From the NCBI RefSeq assembly GCF_006345805.1, contig NC_043007.1, forward strand, positions 38,688,001-38,752,000: DNA of 64,000 nt. The letters are read 5' to 3'. The notes under the pieces were generated by a model. It was not told the origin of the DNA, ran no database searches, and was given only the letters and a program-made list of their open reading frames with translations. Shown here one piece after another: positions 7,693 to 64,000 of this stretch (the first letter of the stretch is position 1; the number at the start of each line of letters is the position of its first letter). The position numbers were made by a program, and so were the translations under genes. This DNA comes from Octopus sinensis (Eukaryota).

Positions 7693-8698
7693 TTGGGTCA
7701 TTCCATAAATAATGCAGATTTTTAAATAATTTATTTTTGAAAATTAAGATAAACAAAGTTCTTTTTCAATCTAAAATATACTCTCTATTTTCTACAATGC
7801 TTTTCCATCTACCTGGTAGACTTGCAAGGCTCTTCCAAAATTCACTTGTCCGTGATGAAAAGTTCTCCAATACTATTTTGATCTTGTCTACAGAATTCAT
7901 ATCTTTTCCGTCCAAATGATTTTAAAGATTGTGGAATAAATGATAATCAGATGGGGCGCTGTCCGGTGAATGTGGTCAGTGGTGCATCATTTCCCCTTCA
8001 AACTGCTTTGTTATCATTTGTTTGGGTTTAAAAGTTCAAGGTGGACTAAATCTTTCATATCTCACCAAACAGATAACAACACCTTATGTGGGTGAAGACG
8101 TTTTTTAGCCAAGGGTGCTGGTGTTTCTCCTTTCCTTGTCTAATGTCTTTGGCACTTGACATTTTTATAGAGAACTCATTTCTTTTCACCAGTTGCTATT
8201 TGGTCCAAAAAAGGTTAATTTGTGAGACATAACAGCAAAGAAGAGCACACATTCACCCTATGCGCACAATTAGACTTGGAAAGTTTATGAGGAACCCATT
8301 TACCCAATTTGCTGACTTTTCTGGTGGCACGCAGGTATTGATGAATGATTGAATATCCAAATCCAAGCTTCTCTGCTAGTTCTTCAACAGTTACAATGGG
8401 ATTTTGTTCCACCAAGGTTTGCAGGGTGTCCTCAACAAGCTCTACAGATCTAGGATTAGGCCTGTCTGCTAGACTAGTTTCCAACTCGGAATTTCTGTAA
8501 CCACGATTGACTCTGGCTTACGCTTATTGTCTGATCCCCATATACTGCACTTTCCATTGCATTGTTGCTTTTATTGTACTCATAAAACAAAATATACCAA
8601 ATATGCTCCTTTGTCACTTCCATTATAGCTTTGAAAAAATAACTGTTAAAATTGAACGGCACTCTTCAAAACTTGCACTAAGAATAAGTTGATTTTTT
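7693..8698 (-). mobile_element. Decayed Tc1/mariner transposon (transposase pseudogene)
   Basis: Minus-strand fragments KLGKWVPHKLS, HSPDSAPSDYHLFH and SLPGRWKSIVENREYI. TA followed by the TTGGGTCATTCCATAAATAATGC terminus at 7693. Multiple frameshifts. Confidence 0.9.
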
Positions 8699-11030
8699 AC
8701 TTTCCACAAGGGGACAACATAGAAAAGGACAACACAATCTGATTGGGGTCAGGTGAACGAATGGTTATTACATTAATATGAAGTTAAAAATTCACAAAAT
8801 AAAAATATAAGGAAATCGAATGATAGGACAGACTGGAAGACATTACAGATGCAGTGGGGAGGCAGGTTTAATTCGGACCCCACAAGCCCTGCCTCACCAT
8901 TGATACCCGAGGCATGTCCTGTGCTGCATTCATGAGGTTACATTCACACGCAACATCTGCGTTACATTCTTCCATTAATTTTCAAACATTTTCACAGTCA
9001 GGCATTTTCTCTCTAGCCTTATCTTCCTTTTAAGGTGAAAGGTGAAGTAATTCATCAATTCAGGGCCAGAGATGAAGGTACCTGACTTTAATCCTTTCAG
9101 CCTCGTCTTCCAAATCACTTCTCTCGCAATTGCTACTACAATGAGAAAACAAATTCTTTCCTTCTTTCGAAAGGAAATCAAGCGGGTCAATTTTTACTAT
9201 AGACTCAGTCAATATCTGTACTCTTCTTGCACTTGACAACAGTTGTTCAGCATAAACCCACACATCTGACACCTCTGAACATTGAACTATAGCATGCGGA
9301 ACGGTTTTCCTATCCCGCTCGCATCTTGGACAAGTTGAAGAGCCGCGACCTCCATGCCTTGTGAGCTTGTACTGAACAGGTAAGGCTCCTTAGTAACACT
9401 GCCATGCCAGAGACTTCTGAAAGTTGTCCAGAGTCTTTAGCCTGAATATATGTCAGAACAGACTGGCCAGCTGATTATCGTTGAGACCTAGGGTTTCCAC
9501 TAAGGTATCGTCACATTCCGTCTCTACAAGCCCTTTATAAAAGAATGCGGTGGAACCTCTACTGCAGTCATTGCTCGAGTGACGGAATAGCAGGAGAGCC
9601 CTTCCACAAGAAGTGGAAGAGCTGTCTTTCTAGCTTGATTAACCATGAATCAGGGCAAGGAACAATGGTTAGGCAGTAGGTGATGACCGATGCAATGAAC
9701 ACATTGGCTACCTCCGCCCTCCCTTTCAGGGATAGCCACTGCCAAGACCAGGTCTTGACTATGTAGGTCACCCTGCCTGATACCTCGGCCCAGTTCTTTA
9801 TTTGGAGGTCTGGTCCAAACCAAACTCCTAGCAACATAATTGGACTCTCCGTTCAATGTCCCACAACGCTGTCAGGAGGCATCGACTTGCCTCTCCAGGT
9901 GCTGAGCTTCAAGCTGACTGACTTTTCTCGATTAACTTTTGCTCCTACCACCATCTCATAAACCTTAATGGCCTTGCCTACCCTCTGAAGGTGATCCATT
10001 TCTGTTACAGTGATGGTGATGTCATCCACATAAGCTGAAACCAACTTTACACAACCTAGCTGTCTTGGAATGCCGATCAATTTTTGCAGTAATGGCTCAA
10101 GAACCATTACGTACAAAAGCGAGGAGAGCAGGCATCCTTGACGAACTGAGCATTTGGTGTTGAACGGTTTCGATATGAAGCCATTCACCCAAACTACTGA
10201 GTTGATGTTATCATAAATCTGAATGATCCACCTGAGGAAGCCAAGACCCAGGCCGAACTGTGCCAGAATGGACACCATGTAGCGATGGTCAACCCTATCA
10301 AATGCCTTAGATTGGTCTAAATGGAGCAGTGCCCCACCCTTGCCAGAATTACTATCAAACCCCTCTAAAGTGTACCATATAAAATGGAGATTATCCTCGA
10401 TGGTTCTGCCGGGAACGGCACATGTCTGTGCCTACTCGATCAGACCATCCGTGACATGCACCAATCTTTTCAATAACACTTTGGCCAAAATCTTCTACTC
10501 TGCATTTAGCAGAGTGATGGGCCGAAAATTATCAATGGAATCCCCCTTGTCCGGGTCTTTGCAAAATAAACCCATTCTGTTGCCAGTTCGCGTAGACATT
10601 TGCCAGCAGGTGCTTGAACAAGTCTGGCATACTCTTATACAACTCATAGGGTAGACCATCCAGTCCTGGCACCTTACCTGCGCCCCAGTCTGCCATAGCC
10701 TTGATTACCTTCTCAGGTGTGATCGGCCCCTTCACAGCACTCCGCATCCCATTCTGATAGGTGCGGCAGCCTGGCAAGGAAGTCCGTTAGGTTCCTCCTA
10801 CTATCCAGCCTGCCGCCCCCACCGAAAAGCTGGCTGAAGTGCTCCTGAAAAGCCTCAGGTTCGTTCATCAACTTACCTTGTTGGTTTGTCAAGGATCAGA
10901 TTGTGGCATCATTACCACATTGGGCTTCCACTACTTGGGCCCATCCTGTAGCCTTGATTCCCTCACAACCCACTGCACAAAGCCTAGCACTGATAATGCA
11001 TCCACTCCTGATACCATACAACTAGTGTAA
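8699..11030 (-). mobile_element. 5'-truncated, frameshifted L1/Tx1-clade LINE (RT, C-terminal CCHC knuckle, 3'UTR)
   Basis: PGLDGLPYE, RPITLLNA, LDQSKAFDRVDH, SVRQGCLLS, SAYVDD, LSLKGRA, CPRC...HAIVQC. Confidence 0.92.
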
Positions 11031-25222: not shown

Positions 25223-25273
<51 letters not shown>

Positions 25274-25410
25274 GGTCCCGGGTTGATTCGGGGTTAACCA
25301 CAGTAAATAAGGTACTCAATATAGCAGAGTAAAATTAATTTATTATTGAGCTTCCTGAAGATTTCTCTTGAATGAAACAGTTCTAGTCCTGTAGAAGCTC
25401 CTTCTATATA

Positions 25411-25503
<93 letters not shown>

Positions 25504-25580: not shown

Positions 25581-26714
25581 AGGTGTGGCTGTGTGGTAGA
25601 AGCCTGCTTCCTAATTACATGGTTCTGGTTTCAGTGCCACTGCATGGCGCTTTGGGCAAGTGACTTCTATTATAGCTTTAGGTTGATCAAAGCCTTGAGT
25701 GAATTTGGTAGATGGAAACTGAAAGAAGCCCATCGTGTATACATATGTGTCTGTAGATCTGAGTGAGTATGTCTTTGTGTCTGTGTTTGTCCTCCCCATC
25801 ACTGCTTGACGCTCGGTGTTGGTGCCCATAACATAGCAGTTTGGCAAAAGAGACTAATAAGTATTAAGCTTAAAAAATAAGTCCTAGTGTCGATTTGTTT
25901 GACTAAAACCCTTCAGAGCGGTACTCCAGCATGGTCGCAGTCAAATGACTGAAACAAGTAAAAGAATAAGAGAATACACACACACATACACACACACACA
26001 GATACATATATACACAGATGTATATATATTCATATGTATGTTATGAAATGTATGTATGTATTATGTATATATATATATATAATATATGTATGTATGTGTG
26101 GTGTGTGTGTGTGTAATGTTTCCTTATTTTGGATGGTAAGGTGAGATATTTTGGAATGGCCTTTGCATATATTATATAAGTGCATTGTGATGTGATGTAA
26201 GGAATAAGCGGAGATATTTGTTACCTTTTAGATTTGGTCCCTTAATATGGCGGAGTTTTTTTTTTCCCCCAAATTGTTTTAGCAGAACAAAAGTATCCAA
26301 GCTGCTCAAAGGTGAAAAATCGAGTGTCTGACTAATAAGAATTGTCTTATGATGTTGACATGAGACACAGGTGGACAAACAGAGAGAGAGATGAGAGAAA
26401 GAGAGAGAGAGAGAGAGGGAGGGAGAGAGAGAGGGGGGAGAGAAAGAAAGAAAGAGAGAGAGAGACAAAGAAAGAGAGACCAAATAACTGACTGACTGAT
26501 GGACAGACAGGCAGACAGACAGACAAACAGACAGACAGACAAACAGACAGGCAGGCAGAGATAGACAGACAAATTCTTGGGCTAAAGTTTTGCACTGAAA
26601 TGTATCCCTTGTCCCCGCATCCACGCATCCCCTGTCCACCATTTCTCCATCTACTGTGGTGAGGAGTAAAGGGGATTAAGACAATAAGAACAGCAACAAC
26701 AAAATAATAAAACT

Positions 26715-36127: not shown

Positions 36128-39100
36128 CTGTTGATTATAAAAAAAAAAAAAAATGAGTAATTATACACATGCACAAATACATACAAACAAGATTCATATT
36201 CTAAAGAAGTAGCTATTGTGTCACTTAATAGAACCAAAGGGCAGTGAATTGGTCGGAGTTGTAAATCATCATCATCATCATTTAGCGTCCGCTTTCCATG
36301 CTAGCATGGGTTGGACGGTTCAACTGGGGTTTGGGAAGCCAGAAGGCTGCACCAGGCCCAGTCTGATCTGGCAATGTTTCTATGGCTGGATGCCCTTCCT
36401 AACGCCAACCACTCCGTGAGTGTAGTGGGTGCTTTTTACGTGCCAGACGGGGCTGGCAAACGGCCACAGTTGGATGGTGCTTTTTACATGCCACTTGCAC
36501 GGGGGCCAGGCGAGGCTGGCAACGGCCATGATCGGATGGTGTGCTGGATAAAATGCTTTGTGGTGTTTGTTCTGCCACTTGATGCTCTGAGCTCAAATCC
36601 TGATGAGGTTGACTTGACTTTCATTATTTTTGGGGGTTGATAACAGACGCACGAATCCTGGTGAATGATTGACAAAGTCTTTCATTGACAGGACCAAGGA
36701 AGGTTGAAATCACATGATCTGGAGGGCTCAGTACTGGAGATGGCAGGGGTTTATCTCCCCACAAGTGATATAAACAAGTGTACATTTTGCACCAAAAGCC
36801 AATATAAGAGTTTCTCTCATGGTATCTACTGCAGTCTAGTTTGTTCTAACAACATCCATGTTCAAGTGGGGATAAAACTGAAAGAATGTCAAATCAGATG
36901 TTTAACAGTATTTATTCCAGCTCTTTGTGTTTTGAGTTCAAGTTAAACACCATCACTTGGCACCTTGGGTATAATTCACAGTGTCCAGCCTGTTGCAAGT
37001 TTTCAGGCTAGATTTCTGCTTTAAGGAGAGATCTTCCTTTCCTCCCACTTGTCTCAGAAGTCCTATAAAGTGTCATGGGAACTGCCTTCTCTTTTGACTA
37101 ACAATATAAAAATAAAACTCCTTTTAAATTCTGAGCTCATTCTCTAGGGGTCAATAAAATAAGAACCACTTATATGATGGAAGCCATTTAATCAATTGCT
37201 CCTTGCCTGGGACCTCTGAGAAAATTTTTTTTGTATAAAGAGACACAAAGTTTCTTTTGTGCCTCCTTTCCTTCTGGGCTCTCAGCCAGTCTTCAATATA
37301 TGGAAATATTTGCTGAGAGCCCAGGAAATACCCAGGCTTGGGTACAATTTAAATCCCTGTGCTCTCCTCTCTATTGGCCCTAACCCTCCCACAATAGTTG
37401 TATTTTGTTATAAATCATTGTCTTCATTATTATTATCATCATTACCATCAAAAATAATGTCTATAATATTTTTTATGGATCTTTACATTCTGCTGAGGTC
37501 ATCTTTGCCTTTCATCTTTTCAGCATAGATACAGTATTGACTAAACCCCTCCCCACCAAATTGCTGGCCTAGTGCCTGTCTGGCTATATGTCCTGAGTTC
37601 AAATTCTACAAAGATTGATTTTGCTTCCATCCCTTTCAGGGTTGATAAAATAATACCAGTCAAGTACTGGGATTGATGTAATCAACTCTCCCCTCCCCTC
37701 AAAACCTGCTGGCCCTGTGCCAAAATTTGAAACAATTATTATTATTATTACTACTACTACTACTACTACTACTACTATCATTATTATTATTATTAAGGTG
37801 GTGAGCTAGCAGAATTGTTAGCATGCTGGGTGAAATGCTCAACAGTATTTCGTCTGTCCTTATGTTCTGAATTCAAATTCTGTCATCAACTTTGTCATCC
37901 TTTTAGTGTTGATCAATTAAGTACCAGTGAAACACTGGCGGTCGATGTAATTCACTAGTCCTCTCCCCGCCAAATCTCAGGCCTTGTGTCTTTAGTAGAA
38001 AGAGTCGTCGTCACCGTCGTTGTCGTCATTGGTGATGAGTGGTAGAATTGGCAAAAGAAAACCAAAATCAGAGTTTTAATTTTTCTTTCAACAGATTATT
38101 AAGTAGATATATGAGTAGTATTGATCATCTCAAGCAAACATTAAAAAGACAAAAAAACAACAACAAAACAAATAAAAAGATTCCAAGTAAATTTATTTAA
38201 AGGCATTAAGAGAAAAAGCAAAAACTTACTTAACAACTGCGGTTTTCTCTTGTGAGGTTAATTCAAAGAATGTTTCAATTGTGTAAATCTCTGATATGAT
38301 ATGTAGCATGATGGTTCGGAAAGCAAGGCATAAACACGGTACACTGAAGAAATAGAGAAAATAACAATGAATTCTCTATAGCAGATAGAAAAAAAATAAT
38401 TTTCTTGTAATTGTTGTTGTTGTTGTTGTTGTTTAGTCTCATGTCAGCTCTGATTGAGCAGATCTATGATCAAAGTTATTCTAGCTGTGACAATCTCATT
38501 TTTTTTTTGTTTTTAGCTGTGTGATGAGAAATGAGGACAATATTAATTAACACACACACACACACGCACACACACGCACACACATGTACACACACACACA
38601 CTTACACACACACACACACACGTACATACAAGGAGCCTCTTTCAGTTTCCATCTACCAAATCTACTCACAAGGCTTTGGCTGGCTCATGGCATAACAGAA
38701 AACATGCCTTAGGTACCACAGAGCAACACCGAATCTGAGACCACATGGTTGGAGAGCAAGCTTCTCAACTACATAGCAGTGTCTAAAATTATTTAGATAA
38801 ATTCTTCATTGTCTTCAAAATTAACTGAAACAAAAGCAGTGTACTTCCAAAGATATATGGTAACAAAAGAGTTAAAGTGAGCTTTGAAGGAGATTTGGTT
38901 GCTACAGGTAGCAGGCTGAGTAAACAAAGCTTTGCTGCTCCATTGAGTTTTCAATGTTTTATATTAGAATATTAGAGAGAGTGGACCACTGAACTCAATG
39001 CATTTTTTTCATTCTTTCTCTATTTATTTCCCTTTATTCCTTTCTATGAAAGAGCATAGGCTCAAAATGTAAAAGACTTTTCCATTTTTCCTGAGCATAG

Positions 39101-40377
39101 GCATAGGAGTGGCTGTGTGGTAAGAAGCTTGCTTACAAACCACATAGTTCCAGGTTCAGTCCCACTGCATGGCACCTTGGGCAAGTGTCTTCTACTATAG
39201 CCTCAGGCTGACCAAAGCCTTGTGAGTGGATTTGGTAGATAGAAACTGAAAGAAGCCCGTCGTATATATGTATATTATATAATATATATATATATATTTA
39301 TTATATAGAAGGAGCTTCTACAGGACTAGAACTGTTTCATTCAAGAGAAATCTTCAGGAAGCTAGTTAACAAGAATTGTATTGGCATTTGTACATTTAGG
39401 CAGGTTTAAAGGGGTGTTGGTGGGGGACTTTTTGGGGGTAGGCATAGCGCAAAATATCATACTTGGGGGAGTGGTCAAGAGTCAGTGTTAATTAGATAGA
39501 AGAATAAAAAAAAAAAAAAAATATATATATAGAAAAAAAGGGAATAGAGTTTTAGGTAAATAAGGAGATTCTCACTTATACCTATGCACATATGTATACA
39601 TATATACACACACATACAACATATATACATATACATACATACATACATACACACACACGTATATACATATATATACACTTACACATACATATACATATCT
39701 ACACATACACATATATGTATACATACACACACTCACATGCATACACGTATACACACTGTATATTACAACACAACACGACCACACATACATATACACACAG
39801 AAAAATATATATACACTACACACACATACTCACATACACGCATACACACACATATCCACACACACACATGCACACACAGCACACTAGTCCCTATATACAC
39901 ATATATACACATACACACATATACACACACATACATATACATACATATATATATATATATATATGTACATATGTGTACCTATGCATACCTACACATACAC
40001 ACATATATATACACATACAAATACAGACCCATTCCCTAATTTTAATTTTATTATCTTCATTTATTACTTTTGTTATCTTTGACCGCTGGTCACAAACATC
40101 TTGGCTATGACAGCCAGTCCATTTATCTGTCTACTGGAAAACAAGCACTCATTCACTCACGCACACTCTTTAGCACGTACACTCACTCATTCGTACACTC
40201 ATACACATACACGCACGCACGCGTTATATTCATACATACATACATCTACATACATTCACGTATATACACATACGTACGTGTACCTACAGATTCATGTCTA
40301 CACTCTTAGAAGGCTAGTCTATACATATACACCAATAAATATAATACACACACATACATATACACCTACATACAAAT

Positions 40378-40426
<49 letters not shown>

Positions 40427-40778
40427 CATATATATACATATGTATGTATGTGTGTGTGTGTATACATTTGTGTGTCTGTGTGTTTGTCCTCCAACATTGC
40501 TTGACAACCAATGCTGGTGTGTTTACGTCCCCGTAACAGTGGTTCGGCAAAAGAGACTGATAGAATAAGTACTAGGCTTACAAAGGATAAATCCTGGGGT
40601 CGATCTGCTCAACTAAAGGCGGTGCTCCAGCATGGCCACAGTCAAATGACTGAAACAAGTAAAAGGATTAGAGAGTAAAGAGTAAAGAGTATCAAACTAA
40701 TAGACTTGCTTGTTGTTCCTACACCTGTCTTCATCTTTGTTTAGCTATAAATTTGAATGATAGGTAGGTAGATAGATT

Positions 40779-40814
<36 letters not shown>

Positions 40815-43630
40815 TAAGCTGACCTTAAAACCATTGTCTTCAAAGTGACCCGGGCCCTTGACCTCAGTTTCTTCTGTTTCAGTAAATCCATTTTCTGTCT
40901 GATGTTCTCTTCTGTTTGTTGCAGTATTTCAACACCGTGCTGGGATACCCGTTGTAATAATGACATAACTTCATTGGTCTGAATAGTGACTGTGCTGCTT
41001 TCAGATGAAGCCTACAAAATATATATTTAGCAGCATTTCAAAAATTTTGAAGTTTGCTTCCCAACCACATGGTTCCGGGTTCAGTTCCACTGCATGGCAC
41101 CTTGGGCAAGTGTCTTCAACTATAGCCTTGGGCTGATCAGAGCCTTGTGAGTGGATTTGGTAGACGGAAACTGAAAGAAACCCGTCAAATATATGTATAT
41201 ATATGTGTGTGTGTGTGTGTTTGTGTGTCTGTGTTTGTCCCCCTAGCATTGCTTGACAACCAATGCTGGTGTGTTTATGTCCCCGTTACTTAGCGGTTCG
41301 ACAAAAGAGACCGATAGAATAAGTACTGGGCTTACAAAAGAATAAGTCCCGGGGTTGAGTTGCTCGATTAAAGGCGGTGCTGAAACAAGTAAAAAAAAAA
41401 ATCCTTTATGTGGCCTCTGAAACTGGTGGGAGGGAGGGAAGATGGTACCCTCAACTGGAGAGCTGGTCTGAATGTCTATATCTGAGTGGGCTCCACTGAC
41501 AGGTGGTGTTAAACCAGGCAAGAAATTAAGTCTAACATCTAAGCAGGTCCTGGTGGGATTTGAACTCAGAATGCAAAGAATCTGAACAAATATCACAAGG
41601 CATCTGGTACAATATTCTTACAGTTCTGCCAATTCACTGCTCTGGATTGGTACATTTTTATTGATCCTGTAAGGATGGATGAAAGGCAAATTTAACATCA
41701 GCAGGAGTTGAGCCTAGAGTAAGTATGAGCAACCATTATAGAAGGGTAGGCTATATGAGACATATCTCATCATCAATTAGGTTGCACAGCTAAAAAACAT
41801 TACTTTACTTGTGAAATTAGGGCATGCCATTCAGAAAGTCCTGCAGACTGCAGTTTGGTCATGGTTGGCCTAGAGCATGGAAAGTCAAAACAAATACTGC
41901 AAGATACACTCTCTGATCTGGTGGGAGGCAGAAGATATGTGCTAGTGTGGATATGCCTTCCATCTCCTGCCAGATCATCCTATCATTCTCATTTGATGTA
42001 GCAACTGCAGGCTGGAAGAGACCCCATGGCAGACCTTGCACCAGATGGCTGCACGTGATTAAGGAAGATCTTCAGAGGCTCAACATCATCCTGGAGGATG
42101 CAGAAGGGAGGGCACAGGACTGTCAGTGATGAGGGACACTGGTGGATCTGGTCTGCTCTACACACTATGATGTCTCCCTGACCTTTAACCTGATGACTTA
42201 AGCTGCATCAAGCAAGAATACAAGTGGGTGAGCAATCCTTTCTGATGCTCTAATGACTTTGTCAATTCACCATCTTTGATAGAGAAATATAGGGATAAGA
42301 AAACTGAAAGTCTGAAACAAATTTACCATTGTGTTTTGAGGTTTTTTCTGTCCCAGATATAATGTATTCAGAGAATGAGAAACGAGTTCTTTGATAACTG
42401 GACCATTTCTTGAATTCTGAAGACAACTGAAATAAATAAGAAATTTCAATGAGAAAAATCAGAAGGCATATAAGATATAACATTAAAGCTTTGAGAGTGG
42501 ATTTGGTAGATGGAAACTGAAAGAAGCATGTAGTATTCATTACATAGTCTTTGTATAGGTAGCATTTATAGGTAGTTAATAATAAACAACCATTCTCACA
42601 GAAATGATTGTCACATTAAGGAATATTGTCTTCATTCATTATTATTATTTGTTCTGCAATCAATGTACTGGAACTAGTTGTAATACAATTCTTGGATTTG
42701 CAGAATACTTGATTATTAATTGATTAGCTAATGGGAATGAACCTGGAACCATGTAGTTGGGAAGCAAGCTTCTCACCACACAGCCATGCCTGTGTGTAAT
42801 TTTGTCTTAATGTTACATGATGGCTGGAAATGAGCATCACAGTCATACAAGTGATGCTCTTCCATTCCAGTCTGTAAGAATATTGTACCAGATGCCTTGT
42901 GATATTTGTTTTGATTCTTTGCATTCTGAGATCAAATCCCATCATGACCTGCTTAGATGTTAGACTTAATTTCTTGCCTGGTTTAACACCACTTGTCAGT
43001 CCTTTGGGTACCTTTAGTGGAGCCCACTAAGATATAGACATTCAGACCAACTCTCCACTTCGAGGATAAAGGTGCTGAAATGCAGTTCAGGCAAGGAACT
43101 AAGCTGAATCACAAGACACCTGAAGAAAGCTGGAGTGTACACAGCCAAAATGTAGTGTAAGCAACAACCAGTTGAGGACACCACTCCGACAAATACATAA
43201 TATAAAATTCCTCATCTCAGAAATATAGAACTGGAAACAACTACATACAGAATTTTAATAGATAATTAAGCAATTGTCTGGTGCCATTTTACCTGATCAG
43301 TTCTGACTTACAGCTGTCGTTGAGCCAGGGAAACCTTAAACTATCAGCCACTTCAACTGTTTTTGCCATTATAGTGAACAGTGGTGATGGTGGTTGTTGT
43401 GAAGGTAGTGATGATGGTGTTTGCTGTTGTGACTCAACATCAAGGTGAGTAGCTTGGATTTCATTTGCTGCATTTAATCTGAAACTGAAAATAGACATTC
43501 ATGAATGAAGAATTAAAGAATAAATTTACATAGGCAAGTGTCTTCTACTATAGCCTTGGGCCGACCAATGCCTTGTGAGTGGATTTGGTAGATGGAAGCT
43601 GGAAGAAGCCTGTCGTATATATATATATAT

Positions 43631-57723: not shown

Positions 57724-60561
57724 TATGTGTGAATATGTATGTGTTCATGTTTCCTTGTCTTGACATCACATGACTTCATTATATACCTTCTCTGTCACCA
57801 TTTCATTTTCTGAAAAGTTAATAATTTAGTTTAATGATATACAATGTTTAATAGGCCCTAGATTCATAACCATGTCATACTGATGACATCCAACTTCATT
57901 GAAATAGCAGCTATATATGAATGCTTGTGAAGGCATGTGGCCTAGTGCTTAGGCTGTTGCACACATGATTGCTAGATCAAGTGTTTGATTCCCAGACCAG
58001 ATGACACATTGTGTTCTTAAGCAAAACACTTCATTTCACGTTGCTCCAGTCCCACTTTGGGTCAGCGGGGAATGTTGGCCTGCTCACCTAGCCAGTAGGG
58101 TGGCGACATTTGAAGGATAAAACAGTGCAAAAGTGCATTGAGACCAGTAATGTGCAACAGCATCTGACAGTCTGGTCAGTCACACGATTACATGACATAA
58201 TATGAATGCTTAGGAGTGTATGATTTAAAGAAATATTAAAAGAAAATTCAGTCAGATTAATGCATAAAAATAATAATACTTTATTCCTTTCACATTACTA
58301 ATGAAAAAAAATATTTAATATGGGTCTCTTGTAAGACAATTCTGCAGGCATGACTGCATGGTTAACTTCACTTTCCAACTATGTGGTTTCAGGTTCAGTC
58401 CCACTGCTTGGCAACTTGGGCAAATGTTTTCTACTATAGCTCTGGGCCAAACAATGGCCTGTGAATGAATTTAGTAAAAAGAAATTTTGTGGAAATCCAT
58501 CTTATATATATATATATATATATAATATATATATATATAATATATATATATACACACATATATATATTGTGTGTTTGTGTGTGTGTGTAAGTTCCCATCC
58601 CTACTGCTTGACAACTAGTCTTGGTTGTTTATGTCTTTGTAACTGACTAGACATAAGTACCAGACTTCAAAGTAAGTACTGAGATTGATTTGTTTGACTG
58701 GAACCCTTCAAGGTGGTACCCCAGCATGGCCACAGTCCAATGACTGTAACAAGGAAAAGATAAAATACACACACACACATTATATTTTACAGATTGTTAA
58801 ATGCCTTTAGCATGAAGTCAGTGAACTTGAAAGATCAGTAAGACCTGTGTGACTCTTTAAACTCTTTTGATACCAATCCACCTGAGGAGACTGCTCCTGG
58901 TTTTGTGATATATAAAGTACCTGTCTTAAAGGGATCTTAATTAAAACCTTCCATAAAAATTTCACGATAATAGTATTTTAAACACGAGCTTCATAAGGAC
59001 AAAGTTATTTCACTAAATTTGTCATTATTTTTTTTCAAAATTAAGTGTAACAAAGGCTGCATTTCACCAGAAATATGGTTAACAGAAGTGTTAACCCTTT
59101 CGTTACTGTATTTATTTTGAGACGGTCTGTGCTTCTTTCAATTACTTTGAATATAACAAAAAATTTAGTAAAATGACTTAGTTACCATTCAGTTAGTATT
59201 AGGAACATAAATTGTGACTAAGGTTTGGTGGAAGATTTTAATTCAAAACTTATGAAAACAAGACATTAGTACTCAGAGCCAGAGCCGGTTTCAGCCGGGT
59301 TGGTAACGAAAGGGTTAAAGGAACCAGAACAAAGCACAGTTACATACAATTAAAAGAACTTACTTTGGTGTTCCCAGTCCATTTCAAATAGGGCGAGTAT
59401 CTTTCATTATACTGTGACAGCGTTAATGGACCAAGCTCATTCTGAAGATGTTTAAAACAAGGAGCTAAACACTGTATGCTGTTTCTGTAGTATTCGGTTG
59501 GATCTTCTTTTGCTGATAATACAAAGCAGAGATAAAGATTATAACTATCTACATTTGTGTGAGATTATGTGTGTATGGGTGCATGCATGTTTATATATAC
59601 ATATGCATGTGCATATAATTATAATTACACATATATATATATATATGTGTGTGTGTGTGAAACTATTAATCCAAAAACATTTTTTCTCCCATCATTGTTT
59701 TCTTTTCTTTCCTGAAAATTCTGTAAATAATAATAATAATAATAATAATTATAAGCTTAAAGCTTATAAGCATTCTTTGTGTATTGGCTAAAGAAAATAG
59801 TCTAATGCCTACTTTTTTCTATCAAGGGTTTATATGCCCCAATATTAGATTATTTTCTTTAGCCAATACATGGTGAATACTTATAATAATTATTATTTAC
59901 AGAAGTGTTAAAGGAACCAATGTCTTGTGAGTGGATTTGGTAGATGGAAACTGAAAGAAGCCCATTGTATATATATATATGTATACATATATATATATAT
60001 ACATACACGACAGGCTTCTTCCAGTTTCCATCTACTGAATCCACTCACAAGGATTTGGTCGGCCTGAGGCTAGAGTACACACTTACCCAGGGTGCCATGC
60101 AGTGGGGCTGAACCTGGAACCTGCATCTATATGTTCAACTGGAGTCTGTGTGTTTATGTCTCCAGAATTTAATGGTTTGGCAAAAAAGACCAACAGAATA
60201 AGTATTAAGCTTAAAATAAGTTTGGTGGGGTCGATTTGTTTGACTAAAGATCTGCAAGGCAGTGCCCCAGAATGGCCACAGTTTAATAACTGAAACAAGT
60301 GAAAGAAATGAACAAAAAATATATATAACTGTTATTTAATGACCAAAAGATCTGAAGCAATGATTTGTAAAGAAAATAAATCTTCTACTACTTACAAGCA
60401 GGCAAAATCTTAGAAATGTAGCTCCAATCAATAAAGCCATTATTTAGTAGACACCTGTTCTCTGGTACATCACTAACGCCTAAGTCACATACAACAGTGG
60501 ACACATTTGCAGACAGGAAACTTTCCATGGAAGTCACATCATATTCCTCTCTTGAAGCCAT
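35956..60561 (-). CDS. ERMARD: ER membrane-associated RNA degradation protein (ERMARD/C6orf70, DUF4209, two HEPN-like motifs); whole gene span, 18 coding exons, 715 aa
   Basis: 18 GT-AG-bounded exons with compatible phases total 2148 nt. The translation contains [67 protein letters not shown] and TSLDKNRW, matching the order of conserved blocks I recall in human ERMARD. Confidence 0.95.
38230..38343 (-). CDS. ERMARD: ERMARD coding exon 17 ([20 protein letters not shown]...KTAVV), hydrophobic segment
   Basis: tttcttcag| ... |gtaagt, 114 nt, phase 2 to 2. Confidence 0.92.
39313..39363 (-). ncRNA. Type I hammerhead ribozyme identical to the 25.3 kb copy, sense-oriented in ERMARD intron 16
   Basis: Exact reverse complement of 25349-25399. 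Confidence 0.75.
39580..40460. repeat. Degenerate (CA/TA)n array inside a SINE
   Basis: Seen directly. Confidence 0.93.
40824..41011 (-). CDS. ERMARD: ERMARD coding exon 16 (ASSESSTV...[16 protein letters not shown])
   Basis: ttttgtag| ... |gtcagc, 188 nt, phase 0 to 2; carries the LRSR motif. Confidence 0.9.
41850..42210 (+). mobile_element. 3' fragment of an RTE-like LINE
   Basis: [21 protein letters not shown]-terminal motif. Confidence 0.7.
42327..42426 (-). CDS. ERMARD: ERMARD coding exon 15 ([33 protein letters not shown])
   Basis: tatttcag| ... |gtaaat, 100 nt, phase 2 to 0. Confidence 0.85.
43293..43484 (-). CDS. ERMARD: ERMARD coding exon 14 ([10 protein letters not shown]...QQPPSPLF...SCKSELI)
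   Basis: ttttcag| ... |gtaaaa, 192 nt, phase 2 to 2. Only the upstream of two tandem AGs keeps the frame open. Confidence 0.82.
45162..45235 (-). CDS. ERMARD: ERMARD coding exon 13 ([24 protein letters not shown])
   Basis: tctctgtcag| ... |gtaagt, 74 nt, phase 0 to 2. Confidence 0.85.
46757..46837 (-). CDS. ERMARD: ERMARD coding exon 12 ([27 protein letters not shown])
   Basis: gatttcag| ... |gtaaat, 81 nt. Confidence 0.9.
47114..47284 (-). CDS. ERMARD: ERMARD coding exon 11 ([23 protein letters not shown]...ANFQK), HEPN motif 2
   Basis: catttcag| ... |gtagga, 171 nt. Confidence 0.95.
48610..48678 (-). CDS. ERMARD: ERMARD coding exon 10 ([23 protein letters not shown])
   Basis: ttttag| ... 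|gtaact, 69 nt. Confidence 0.93.
49263..49482. mobile_element. piggyBac-like TTAA MITE
   Basis: TTAA|CCCTTTAGTGTT ... AACACTAAAGGG|TTAA. Confidence 0.85.
49732..49961 (-). mobile_element. Young CpG-rich copy of the same SINE family nested in an older copy; many older copies, e.g. 14090-14500, 18900-19280, 32780-33770, 37570-38000
   Basis: TSD GTAATCGACTAGT(A/G)CC at 49716-49731 and 49962-49977. Confidence 0.88.
50386..50642. repeat. (CAT)/(CAC)/(CAA)/(CGC) trinucleotide mosaic
   Basis: Seen directly. Confidence 0.9.
50957..50986 (-). CDS. ERMARD: ERMARD coding exon 9, 30 nt ([10 protein letters not shown])
   Basis: ttttcag| ... |gtaaga; carries the LYTT motif. Confidence 0.93.
51232..51487 (-). 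mobile_element. 3' end of a CR1/L2-like LINE with (ATT)n tail
   Basis: Short C-terminal frame [15 protein letters not shown], then a 3'UTR and trinucleotide tail. Confidence 0.5.
52060..52162 (-). CDS. ERMARD: ERMARD coding exon 8 ([34 protein letters not shown])
   Basis: attatag| ... |gtaaca, 103 nt, phase 2 to 0. Confidence 0.95.
52205..52495. repeat. (GAT/GGT)n degenerate trinucleotide array
   Basis: Seen directly. Confidence 0.9.
52615..52732 (-). CDS. ERMARD: ERMARD coding exon 7 ([14 protein letters not shown]...[11 protein letters not shown])
   Basis: tgttag| ... |gtgagt, 118 nt, phase 1 to 2. Confidence 0.92.
52782..53001. mobile_element. piggyBac-like TTAA MITE (opposite orientation)
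   Basis: TTAA|CTCTTTAGCATT ... AATGCTGAAGGG|TTAA. Confidence 0.8.
53032..53420 (+). mobile_element. Long tRNA-derived SINE with an internal (TA)/(TG) microsatellite; other copies at 13100-13680(-), 22655-23245(-), 25580-25970, 39100-40690, 41053-41390, 43530-43930, 58345-58765
   Basis: Head GGCTGTGTGGTAAG...GGTTCAGTCC, core CCTTGGGCAAGTG, tail GACTGAAACAAGTAAAAGAGT, repeated across the window. Confidence 0.88.
54300..54590 (+). mobile_element. tRNA-derived SINE, third group; relatives at 5148-5470, 6025-6320, 45353-45605, 53700-54025(-), 55556-55860, 57930-58190
   Basis: A-box TGGCCTAGTGGTTAG and B-box GGTTCGAATT. Confidence 0.85.
54778..54908 (-). CDS. ERMARD: ERMARD coding exon 6 ([13 protein letters not shown]...KLLSHLLP)
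   Basis: ctttcttaag| ... |gtgagt, 131 nt, phase 2 to 1. Confidence 0.92.
56034..56131 (-). CDS. ERMARD: ERMARD coding exon 5 ([32 protein letters not shown]), HEPN motif 1
   Basis: gtccag| ... |gtatgt, 98 nt, phase 0 to 2. Confidence 0.95.
56455..56670. repeat. (CA)n/(TGCA)n alternating purine-pyrimidine repeat
   Basis: Seen directly. Confidence 0.9.
56813..56902 (-). CDS. ERMARD: ERMARD coding exon 4 ([30 protein letters not shown])
   Basis: ttgtag| ... |gtaagt, 90 nt. Confidence 0.95.
57147..57248 (-). CDS. ERMARD: ERMARD coding exon 3 (LFLESFELL...[11 protein letters not shown])
   Basis: ttttcgcag| ... |gtaagt, 102 nt, phase 0 to 0. Confidence 0.95.
57297..57645 (-). mobile_element. 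Short RTE-tail-type repeat ending in (GAT)n; copies at 5820-5985, 34988-35192, 36265-36540, 63200-63420
   Basis: Shared GGTTGGCGTTAGGAAGGGCATCCAGC...AACCCATGCTAGCATGGAAAGCGGACGTTAAACGATGATG block. Confidence 0.8.
59095..59314. mobile_element. Second piggyBac-like MITE family, next to an older copy at about 58860-59090
   Basis: TTAA|CCCTTTCGTTAC ... GTAACGAAAGGG|TTAA perfect TIR. Confidence 0.88.
59364..59512 (-). CDS. ERMARD: ERMARD coding exon 2 ([17 protein letters not shown]...[13 protein letters not shown])
   Basis: tatcag| ... |gtaagt, 149 nt, phase 1 to 0. Confidence 0.92.
59719..59903. repeat. Foldback palindrome in an ERMARD intron
   Basis: TGTATTGGCTAAAGAAAATA/TATTTTCTTTAGCCAATACA and TTCTGTAAATAATAAT/ATTATTATTTACAGAA. 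Confidence 0.8.
60396..60561 (-). CDS. ERMARD: ERMARD coding exon 1 ([28 protein letters not shown]...[11 protein letters not shown])
   Basis: Acceptor cacag|AA ATG (exon starts 60563); donor T|gtaagt, phase 1. An upstream 5' exon was not located. Confidence 0.88.
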
Positions 60562-61744: not shown

Positions 61745-63090
61745 GTGGTGGGTGGGTCTTCTCAAGTACATCAATGCGCTACATACCTCAGTCCTCTGTC
61801 ATCTCCTTCATAAGATTCAGTGTTTTGAGATTGGCTTTCAAAACTTCACCTCATGTCTTCCTGGGTTTCCCTCTTCCATAACTTCCTTGCACTTTAAGTG
61901 ATTGGTACTTCTTTATGCATCTGTCCTTATCCATCCACATCACATAGCCAAACCAGTGCAGTCTCCTCACTTGCACACTGCATATAATTCCTCTTATGCT
62001 CAACTTCTTCAATACACCAAAGCTCACTGACATCATACATCCAGCAGAGCATACCAGTTTCATTTCTCTTCAGCCTTTGCATGTCCTCTGCATTCAGGGC
62101 CCTTGTCTTACTAACATGCAGCATTGCAGTTCATACACATGCATCATACAATCTTCCCTTCACTTGGAGAGAGAGATCTTTGGTTGCCAACAGAGGTAAA
62201 AGCTCTCTGAACTTACTTTATTCTATTCTTATTCTAGTAATTACACTTTCTGTACAACCTCCTCCACTGCTAATTAGGTAACAAAATTTATCTATAACTC
62301 CCAGAGAGCAACTGGGACATTTAAAGAAATATGTTTCCGGTGCATCTGTGGTCTTTATGGATCCATATATCTTCCACTACTATTTTCTCTGTTAATCTTC
62401 CAACTATTCTGCTGCACCTCATGTGTCCATAGCTTGCATTGGGTACACTAAATGGAATTTATGCCTACATCCTCCCTACATATCAAGCAGGGCCATTTAC
62501 CTGTTGGTGAAGGTTCTGTCCGATTTCTTGCTTACTCGGACCTTGGTCTTTGCTAAGTTCACTTTAAAACCCTTTGATTCCAGGTTCTGTTTCCACACCT
62601 GAAATTTCTTTTCTAATTCTGTTAGATTCTGCTATGAGGGCGAGATCATCAGCAAGGAGTTCCCATAGGCTTCCAGTCTTAAATACCTCTGTTATGGCCT
62701 AGAGGATGATGATGAACAAGAGGAGGCTGAGGACCAACCCTTGGTGGACACCTACCTGTACACTAAATTCATCAGCATATCTATGACCAACTCTTACCTT
62801 ACTAACAGTACTTCTGTACATGGCCTGTACTGCCTTCACAAGCCATTTGTGTATCCTTAGCTTCCTCAGGGGCCCCATATCACAAAGCAGGGTACTCTAT
62901 CGAAGGCTTTCTCTAGATCAACAAATGCCAAGTACAACAGCTTGTTCTTAGCTAAATAATTCTCTAGCACTTGCCAGGATAAACCTGGATTGTATTTCAT
63001 CTAGTCTAATTCTGTTCCTTTTACTGTCTCTGCAACCTTCATCACCTGGTCCAGCAATCTGATGCCTCTATAATTACTTCTATCAAAGGA
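61745..63090 (-). mobile_element. Decayed RTE-clade LINE, same family as the 21.1-22.2 kb element
   Basis: LAFVDLEKAFDRVP, VGVHQG, ELLADDLAL, GLKVNLAKTKV, RRLHWFGYV, RGKPRKT. Confidence 0.9.
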
Positions 63091-64000
63091 TTCATTAGAA
63101 TCTAGGCACAGCAACACATAAGATGCCAGAACTGGCTGAGTACAATAACAGGGTTCACTGTGAGGGAAAACAACCATTTACACACACACACACGTGTGTG
63201 TGTCGTCGTCGTCATCGTTTAACATCCGTTTTCCATGCTAGCATGGGTTGGACGGTTCGATCGGGGTCTGGGAAGCCAGGAGGCTGCACCAGGCACCAGT
63301 CTGATCTGGCAGTGTTTCTACAGCTGGATGCCCTTCTTAACGCCAACCACTCCCTGAGTGTAGTAGGTGCTTTTTACGTGCCACCGGCACAGGGGCCAGA
63401 GGAGGCTGGCAAACGGCTTGTATGTATGTATATAGCTTGACTGATTTAGAGACTGAACTCATGCTCACTAACTGAACTAAAGCACTTAGCACTTGATACT
63501 TAATCCTTATATTCCCTATCCCATTCTCTTCTTCCTTACCATCATCATCATCGCTTAATGTCCATTTTCCTGTGATTTTATGAGTCTGACAATGTTTATT
63601 GCAACAGATTTTCTATGGTTGGATGCTCTTTCTGTTGTCAACCCTCACTTGTTTCCAAGTAAGGTAATACTTCCCCATAGTGGAGATGTATTTGCAGAAT
63701 ACTGTAAATGAGCGACACAGCTTGCATGACGGTGATTCTCATTTACAACTATCACGTGATGTCAGGACAAGGAGACGAACAAACATGCATGCAAATATAT
63801 AGACATACATACACCTACCCACCTGTCTACTTACCCAACTGCCGAAACTTAGATCGGAGTTGAAACCTCATGTTGTATGCTTTAATTTTTTTAAAAGAAA
63901 TATAATGTCTTAGTTTATTCTGTTAATTACAGAATAATCTTAGTTATTTGGTAAATATCTCAAAGAGAATGATTTTTTGTATTCCCATGTATTAAGATAT

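Follow-up and report, generated by a model that had tools for sequence, protein, structure and literature searches.

Introduction

The amniote hammerheads HH9 and HH10 are intronic ribozymes, present in single copy and long conserved. Hammerheads are also found in Penelope-like elements (PLEs), where their function in EN+ members has been described as unclear by Craig et al. 2021 (PMC8557442), in which the sole octopus family is Hydra-1_Obim from Octopus bimaculoides. Metazoan PLE hammerheads were reported to cleave poorly in vitro (PMC4209133), and an axolotl hammerhead with a U.U pair was reported to cleave as a monomer, to 22% in an hour (PMC7229834). For the Poseidon PLE of Anolis, two internal starts of reverse transcription generate an optional tail at AT-rich targets, uncut RNA prevails as the template, and cutting by the ribozyme requires the protein (PMC11167929). 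The 5′ hammerheads of RNA viruses have been reported to act in translation (PMC13725137). Recently active Penelope-like families have been described in Octopus vulgaris, in an article whose main text does not mention ribozymes (PMC13282606), and among the papers listed by a literature search combining hammerhead ribozyme with octopus, Craig et al. was the only one relevant by title.

Here, we analyzed a 64,000-nucleotide stretch of Octopus sinensis DNA (contig NC_043007.1, positions 38,688,001 to 38,752,000), termed the window, to which all positions below refer. A preliminary description had proposed that it holds an intact hammerhead, sense-oriented within an intron of ERMARD and able to cut the pre-mRNA of this gene. 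Our analysis indicates that the motif is very probably the terminal-repeat hammerhead of a young Hydra-clade PLE, located at the end of a 1.15-kb truncated copy in ERMARD intron 16, and likely a near-silent passenger there.

Results

A type I hammerhead with an unusual loop III

The hammerhead, which belongs to the pLTR of the element, occupies 39313–39363 on the minus strand, with the predicted cut between 39319 and 39318. Stem I (AGCUUC, 39363–39358) is followed by the CUGAAGA core (39357–39351), by stem II as UUUC-ucuu-GAAU with a U.U first pair, and by GAA; stem III (ACAG/CUGU) closes an 8-nt loop, A17 is found at 39319, and GAAGCU forms the second strand of stem I. All stems and the core named in the preliminary description could be read at these positions, confirming both its fold and its coordinates. 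With a CUGANGA core, GAAA and a UH triplet arranged round three stems, of which stem I is open, the motif qualifies as a true type I hammerhead, for which self-cleavage is predicted. Its stem III has a real loop as previously pointed out, the 8 nt of which permit a monomer fold with cleavage as a prediction. The canonical G10.1–C11.1 pair is missing, its place being taken by U.U. The search against Rfam suggested as a check matched no hammerhead family, neither among the 124 window matches at E ≤ 1 nor within 39300–39500 at E ≤ 10.

Folding of the isolated 51-mer yielded an MFE structure containing stems I and III, with pairing probabilities of 0.93 for stem I, 0.53 for stem III and just 0.06 for stem II. 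As loop III retains a CUAG palindrome, for which the intermolecular duplex reaches −13.4 kcal/mol versus −1.7 kcal/mol for the hairpin, a dimer fold may be possible as well; a sense partner is absent near the 39313–39363 copy.

We compared this architecture with the families in File S2 of Craig et al. (PMC8557442). By our own count stem II starts with a U.U pair in 14 of 25 Hydra families, and loop III measures 1–3 nt in all 25, so that the U.U is normal for the Hydra clade, from which the motif departs by its 8-nt loop. Stem III as ACAG/CUGU plus an A is shared with three of these families (PMC8557442), and the U.U base of helix II also with the axolotl hammerhead HHR_Amex2 (PMC7229834). Type I topology, the pLTR position and the prevalence of solo copies are common to minimal PLE hammerheads and metazoan non-LTR retrozymes (PMC4209133, PMC7229834), from which the octopus motif differs by its full 4-bp helix III with an 8-nt loop, by being without G10.1–C11.1 and the extra base after A9, and by the window copy not being tandem. 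Another Hydra-like family in the genome, whose hammerhead is different and has a long stem II with G-C at its base, a palindromic minimal stem III and a GUC triplet, gave 2,956 candidates, of which 40 were scored.

The host intron and its insertion

DUF4209 has one match genome-wide, within the window, identifying the host gene as ERMARD; the translation of one exon is 98–100% identical to three Octopus proteins labelled ERMARD-like or DUF4209. Seventeen ERMARD exons were placed by tblastn and two further by motif. Coding exon 16 (40824–41011, minus strand, GT donor at 40823) and coding exon 17 (38229–38343, minus strand), both located by tblastn, delimit an intron of 2,480 bp (40823–38344), to whose transcript the ribozyme is sense-oriented. 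The 19-residue segment of highest hydropathy in ERMARD comprises amino acids 630–648 and begins in exon 17. The exon mapping agrees with the earlier placement of the ribozyme in sense between exons 16 and 17, upstream of the hydrophobic segment.

The hammerhead lies in a 5′-truncated copy of a Hydra-clade PLE comprising its 3′ 1.15 kb (39296–40449, minus strand), with a short 3′ end at +23 from the cut site. The two halves of a SINE flank this copy on the plus strand: the left half (39104–39268), after which the (TA)n target extends to about 39295, is identical at 138 of 161 positions to the intact SINE at 25581–25976, and the right half (40450–40677) at 182 of 216. An insertion within the (TA)n of a SINE, as noted before, is thereby borne out, but the size of about 270 bp assigned to it has to be corrected to about 1,154 bp, as the element runs past the C-rich block. 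The adjoining 870 bp, rich in (CA)/(TA), are part of the element, since in comparison with other copies the shared sequence continues through them to about 40449. Over about 1,145 aligned bases the window copy shows 98.2–98.7% ungapped identity to all four long copies compared.

A second hammerhead copy is found in the last ERMARD intron, in antisense (25271–25416, plus strand), as a mini-insertion in (TA)n that consists of an inverted tail, an extra G at 25348, the same hammerhead (25349–25399) and a short tail.

Several further features of the window were recorded. In the region 18739–17348 (minus strand), the annotated last ERMARD exon, ending in SYSGPK-stop, lies 17 kb beyond exon 18 and is followed after about 100 bp by an intronless open frame of 428 aa resembling, by eye, a class A GPCR, so that a fusion of gene models is possible. 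For ERMARD exon 13, a duplicate of its start is present in the intron about 1.25 kb upstream (46490–46464 and 45241–45164, minus strand). At 59926–60049, head-to-head SINE halves form a long hairpin scoring as a false microRNA match, and decayed frames named by eye as mariner-like, Tx1-like and RTE-like are located at 8200–10900 (minus strand), 21300 and 61850–63180 (minus strand).

The parent element is a Hydra-clade PLE

The C-rich 281 bp yielded 1,747 genomic candidates, 40 of which were scored and gave 41 matches at 94–100%. In several of 20 copies, each within a 10-kb stretch, a GIY-YIG-type ORF lies upstream on the same strand, and the reverse transcriptase (RT) part was recovered from 30 ORF loci. 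Three of 12 long stretches (L081, L082, L084) exhibit the full order of hammerhead, tail, ORF, 3′ region and hammerhead, with a hammerhead-to-hammerhead spacing of 4,833–5,837 bp, corresponding to a parent unit of about 5–6 kb. The ATG is located at +139 from the cut site, and a long microsatellite-like 3′ region follows the RT/GIY-YIG ORF.

This single ORF encodes an RT and then a C-terminal GIY-YIG, as is characteristic of the Hydra clade, with the motifs RWR, DKT, YRDD, CxCX5C (CNCPDKTTC), YIG, CxxC (CDLC) and CxH (CMH). The element resembles Hydra-clade PLEs in its RT plus C-terminal GIY-YIG without CCHH, in RW(R/K), DKT, CxCX5C, CxxC and CxH, in its (TA)n targets and in its pLTR hammerhead. 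The partial pLTR tandems, inverted truncated copies and optional tail of the clade are present as well. Pfam recognised none of three ORF fragments above its cut-offs, so that the clade assignment rests on motifs; the ORF protein has 1,423 relatives, mostly unnamed, the best at 37–54% identity. None of the 23 ORF starts read leads into an unbroken full ORF, the longest reaching 679 aa, and single-base indels may be assembly errors. Placed by motifs and architecture, the element is a Hydra-clade PLE with a variant hammerhead. By eye it forms a family separate from Hydra-1_Obim, as protein start and hammerhead differ, and it departs from most Hydra elements in a unit of 4.8–5.8 kb versus less than 3 kb and in a loop III of 8 versus 1–3 nt.

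We also considered a non-LTR retrozyme and rejected it, since tandem hammerhead units of 170–400 bp would be expected and the window copy is a solo 1.15-kb fragment. Arrays do exist elsewhere in the genome. On contig C16 (about 42.875–42.878 Mb) at least 12 head-to-tail 249-bp units in two inverted arms each carry hammerhead, tail and ORF start, a retrozyme-like arrangement derived from the PLE pLTR and observed at this locus only, and on contig C9 (about 87.420–87.422 Mb) a second array comprises five units of about 422 bp.

Thousands of copies with invariant stems

The exact 39-nt core occurs in 2,034 genomic copies with none in the control, showing that the motif is not due to chance, and leaving N7 and loop II free raises this number to 5,457, again with a control of zero. 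Between subfamilies A and B (30 copies each) three of 51 ribozyme positions differ, namely N7 and two bases of loop II, compared with 30 of 150 positions upstream and 11 of 88 downstream (77 of 88 kept). Likewise, two diverged full copies differ from L081 within the ribozyme at N7 and loop II only, and in four public contig sets with three organism codes N7 was the sole difference above 10% inside the ribozyme. Subfamily changes across all comparisons are confined to N7, loop II and loop III. No compensatory pair change was observed among the listed variants; the stems are hence invariant and not covarying.

These data bear on the idea that the ribozyme is a regulator selected by the host, producing a truncated, non-membrane ERMARD or tuning its level in the manner of CPEB3 or the amniote intronic ribozymes. 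The site just upstream of the hydrophobic exon would suit such a role, and the intronic CPEB3 ribozyme is likewise a sense-oriented self-cleaving motif (PMC10919898), cleavage being predicted here. However, CPEB3 carries a single-copy, long conserved ribozyme (PMC10919898), whereas the octopus copy was inserted recently as one of many, matches other young copies at 98% identity, and has an ordinary truncated structure, thousands of siblings and nothing special about its locus. Domestication is thus highly improbable, and a conserved intronic host ribozyme, which requires a single copy conserved across species at the orthologous site, was rejected on the same thousands of copies at 98% identity.

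Copy ends point to a transcript start at stem I

For 100 consecutive cores on contig C1, the 3′ end was located at +96 in 50, near +23 in 48 and elsewhere in two, while the 5′ side consisted of native upstream DNA in 49, fold-backs in 48 and other sequence in three. About half of all hammerhead copies are hence fold-back minis, which turn at the 5′ edge of the ribozyme. The two 3′ ends resemble the situation in the Anolis PLE with its two RT starts and its optional tail (PMC11167929). Poseidon belongs to another clade, and its hammerhead overlaps the start codon, versus a position 139 nt upstream here; a transcript start at stem I is not among the features reported for it in the accessible text (PMC11167929).

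Fold-back centres, counted genome-wide as self-complementary patterns of equal gap width with at most 12 nt between the arms, fell on the 5′ strand of stem I in 999 cases, on the cut site in 16 and in loop III in nine, an AGCT palindrome being present at both of the first two positions. Native bases upstream of stem I were seen in none of the 50 fold-back centres listed and read by eye. Similarly, 5′ ends did not pile up at the cut site, at which none of 55 tail-to-ORF copies starts (nearest at −2; 17 of the 55 in two arrays), and a 3′ end at the cut site was found in one of 30 copies. Where native upstream DNA is retained, TATAAA is located 28–30 nt upstream of stem I (45 of 49 copies). In the window copy the position of this box (39387–39392, minus strand; 29 nt upstream of stem I) reads TACAAA, and owing to this mutation the copy probably makes no RNA of its own.

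A third line of evidence comes from junctions of the form T-(G/C)-AGCTTC, of which there are 252, with G in 75 and C in 25 of the 100 listed. Thirty were read by eye, including some that represent both arms of a single insertion. Native upstream DNA is absent from all of them; 10 of 13 C junctions derive from the inverted arm, whereas at least 10 of 17 G junctions do not and seven of 17 are ambiguous. Reverse transcription of a cap is known to show as an additional G at the cDNA end. Based on the fold-back hotspot, the TATAAA spacing and the extra G, we consider it likely that the element RNA is capped, begins with the first base of stem I and serves as template in uncut form. Uncut templates are informative on the RNA that underwent reverse transcription and not on the extent of cutting, and the cut RNA may be destroyed.

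Alternatively, the hotspot could arise from RT stalling or template switching at the ribozyme structure, with long tandem or re-ligated circular RNAs as templates. Stem I is an inverted repeat which some junctions do use (25271–25416; L003), circles have been proposed for PLEs (PMC4209133), and the tandem arrays of 249 and 422 bp exist, but neither the 29-nt TATA spacing nor the extra G would be explained, and the lack of native bases upstream of stem I in the 50 listed centres with arms at most 12 nt apart also speaks against it. We therefore regard this explanation as rather improbable and retain the capped start at stem I.

Literature searches returned no paper on a cap-derived extra G, none linking Penelope-like elements, TATA, hammerhead and inverted copies, and, in a search not reaching most subscription papers and bioRxiv supplements, none on a PLE transcript starting at the hammerhead. 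The 999-versus-16 fold-back bias, the TATAAA 29 nt upstream and the extra-G junctions are new here.

A predicted lock in read-through RNA

The 12 bases past stem I complete a predicted 8-bp hairpin (39304–39322, minus strand; −6.1 kcal/mol), which buries the GUA triplet together with the 3′ strand of stem I and is kept in subfamilies A and B. Upstream, ACUAG (39362–39366, minus strand) is a predicted partner of loop III in read-through RNA, in subfamily A and some relatives only. In thermodynamic predictions that leave out tertiary contacts and kinetics, the probability of stem I was 0.93 for the ribozyme alone, dropped to 0.28 once 12 nt of downstream sequence were included and to 0.02 after a further 20 nt on the upstream side, whereas values of 0.72–0.83 were obtained with up to 100 nt upstream and nothing downstream. 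The probability of stems I and III was below 0.1 in 15 of 16 settings having both flanks, and the MFE structure of 39375–39305 is devoid of these two stems (z = −0.09). Shuffled downstream bases gave equally low probabilities in 20 of 500 and 27 of 500 trials, which makes the effect of the downstream hairpin modest evidence. When six variant contexts were folded, three were locked, two had mutations of their own and one, a subfamily variant, retained the active fold with a probability of 0.9 in some settings. Taken together, the hairpin and the upstream pairing are predicted to switch off the fold in read-through RNA such as the ERMARD pre-mRNA. By eye, the 3′ flank of Penelope-1_NV (PMC8557442, File S2) could also form a hairpin at the cut site.

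Consequences for ERMARD

Both competing pairings are contained in the ERMARD pre-mRNA, so that cleavage is predicted to be slow relative to splicing and, given the predicted misfolding, to have little effect on the host gene. The copy at 39296–40449 thus likely does little to ERMARD, although some low-level cleavage of the pre-mRNA may occur. The proposed cutting of this transcript found no support: the motif belongs to a young multi-copy transposon, its fold is lost with flanks, the templates were uncut, and exons 16 and 17 are joined in annotated proteins of two octopus species.

A stronger effect would require that the passenger copy acts as an accidental attenuator, cleaving an appreciable fraction of the nascent ERMARD transcripts in the short interval before the blocking hairpin closes and thereby lowering the full-length mRNA of this allele. 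All core bases are present in sense to ERMARD, and stem I is predicted to form well with upstream sequence up to 100 nt and none downstream (0.72–0.83). In addition, an intronic ribozyme lowers Cpeb3 mRNA in mouse (PMC10919898), so that partial attenuation could occur, and Xenopus introns are reported to be depleted of HHR repeats (bioRxiv 10.64898/2026.07.22.740005). Yet the time window would span only about 12 nt of transcription, stem II has just 3 bp with a U.U, and both the uncut templates of the PLE family and the annotated proteins joining exons 16 and 17 argue against substantial cutting. Attenuation of this kind is accordingly quite unlikely, and a near-silent passenger is the reading we favour.

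Discussion

From these observations a life cycle can be sketched in which transcription from a TATA promoter in the pLTR would yield a capped RNA beginning with the first base of stem I. The element protein would nick (TA)n, and reverse transcription would begin at +23 or +96 and pass through a ribozyme that is still uncut. Folding of the ribozyme would be possible mainly when it forms the 5′ end of the element RNA, before the next 12 bases form the blocking hairpin; alternatively, the protein of the element might help it to fold. A cut at the 5′ end of the element RNA would remove a capped leader of 45 nt.

Tentatively, and with more doubt than confidence, we propose that the hammerhead comprises exactly the first 51 bases of the capped transcript and may serve as a fate switch that cuts only before the conserved hairpin closes. 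It would separate decapped RNAs, destroyed or translated independently of a cap, from uncut RNAs that are reverse-transcribed, and the hairpin would keep some 5,000 copies harmless in host introns. By analogy, a role in translation as in RNA viruses is one possible use of the cut. If the proposal holds true, about 1,000 fold-back mini-copies record the start site, and the function of PLE hammerheads becomes directly testable.

For ERMARD, the reading as a host regulator falls away, as the motif is the end of a transposon in an intron. For the family, the 999-versus-16 count speaks for templates that were uncut and started at the first base of the ribozyme. Since hammerheads in EN+ PLEs have no clear function according to Craig et al. 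(PMC8557442), this gives a handle on an open question. The family further combines a loop III that permits a monomer, without counterpart among the other Hydra elements listed, with a predicted built-in lock, and this lock, if real, would explain how the genome tolerates thousands of intact ribozymes in its introns.
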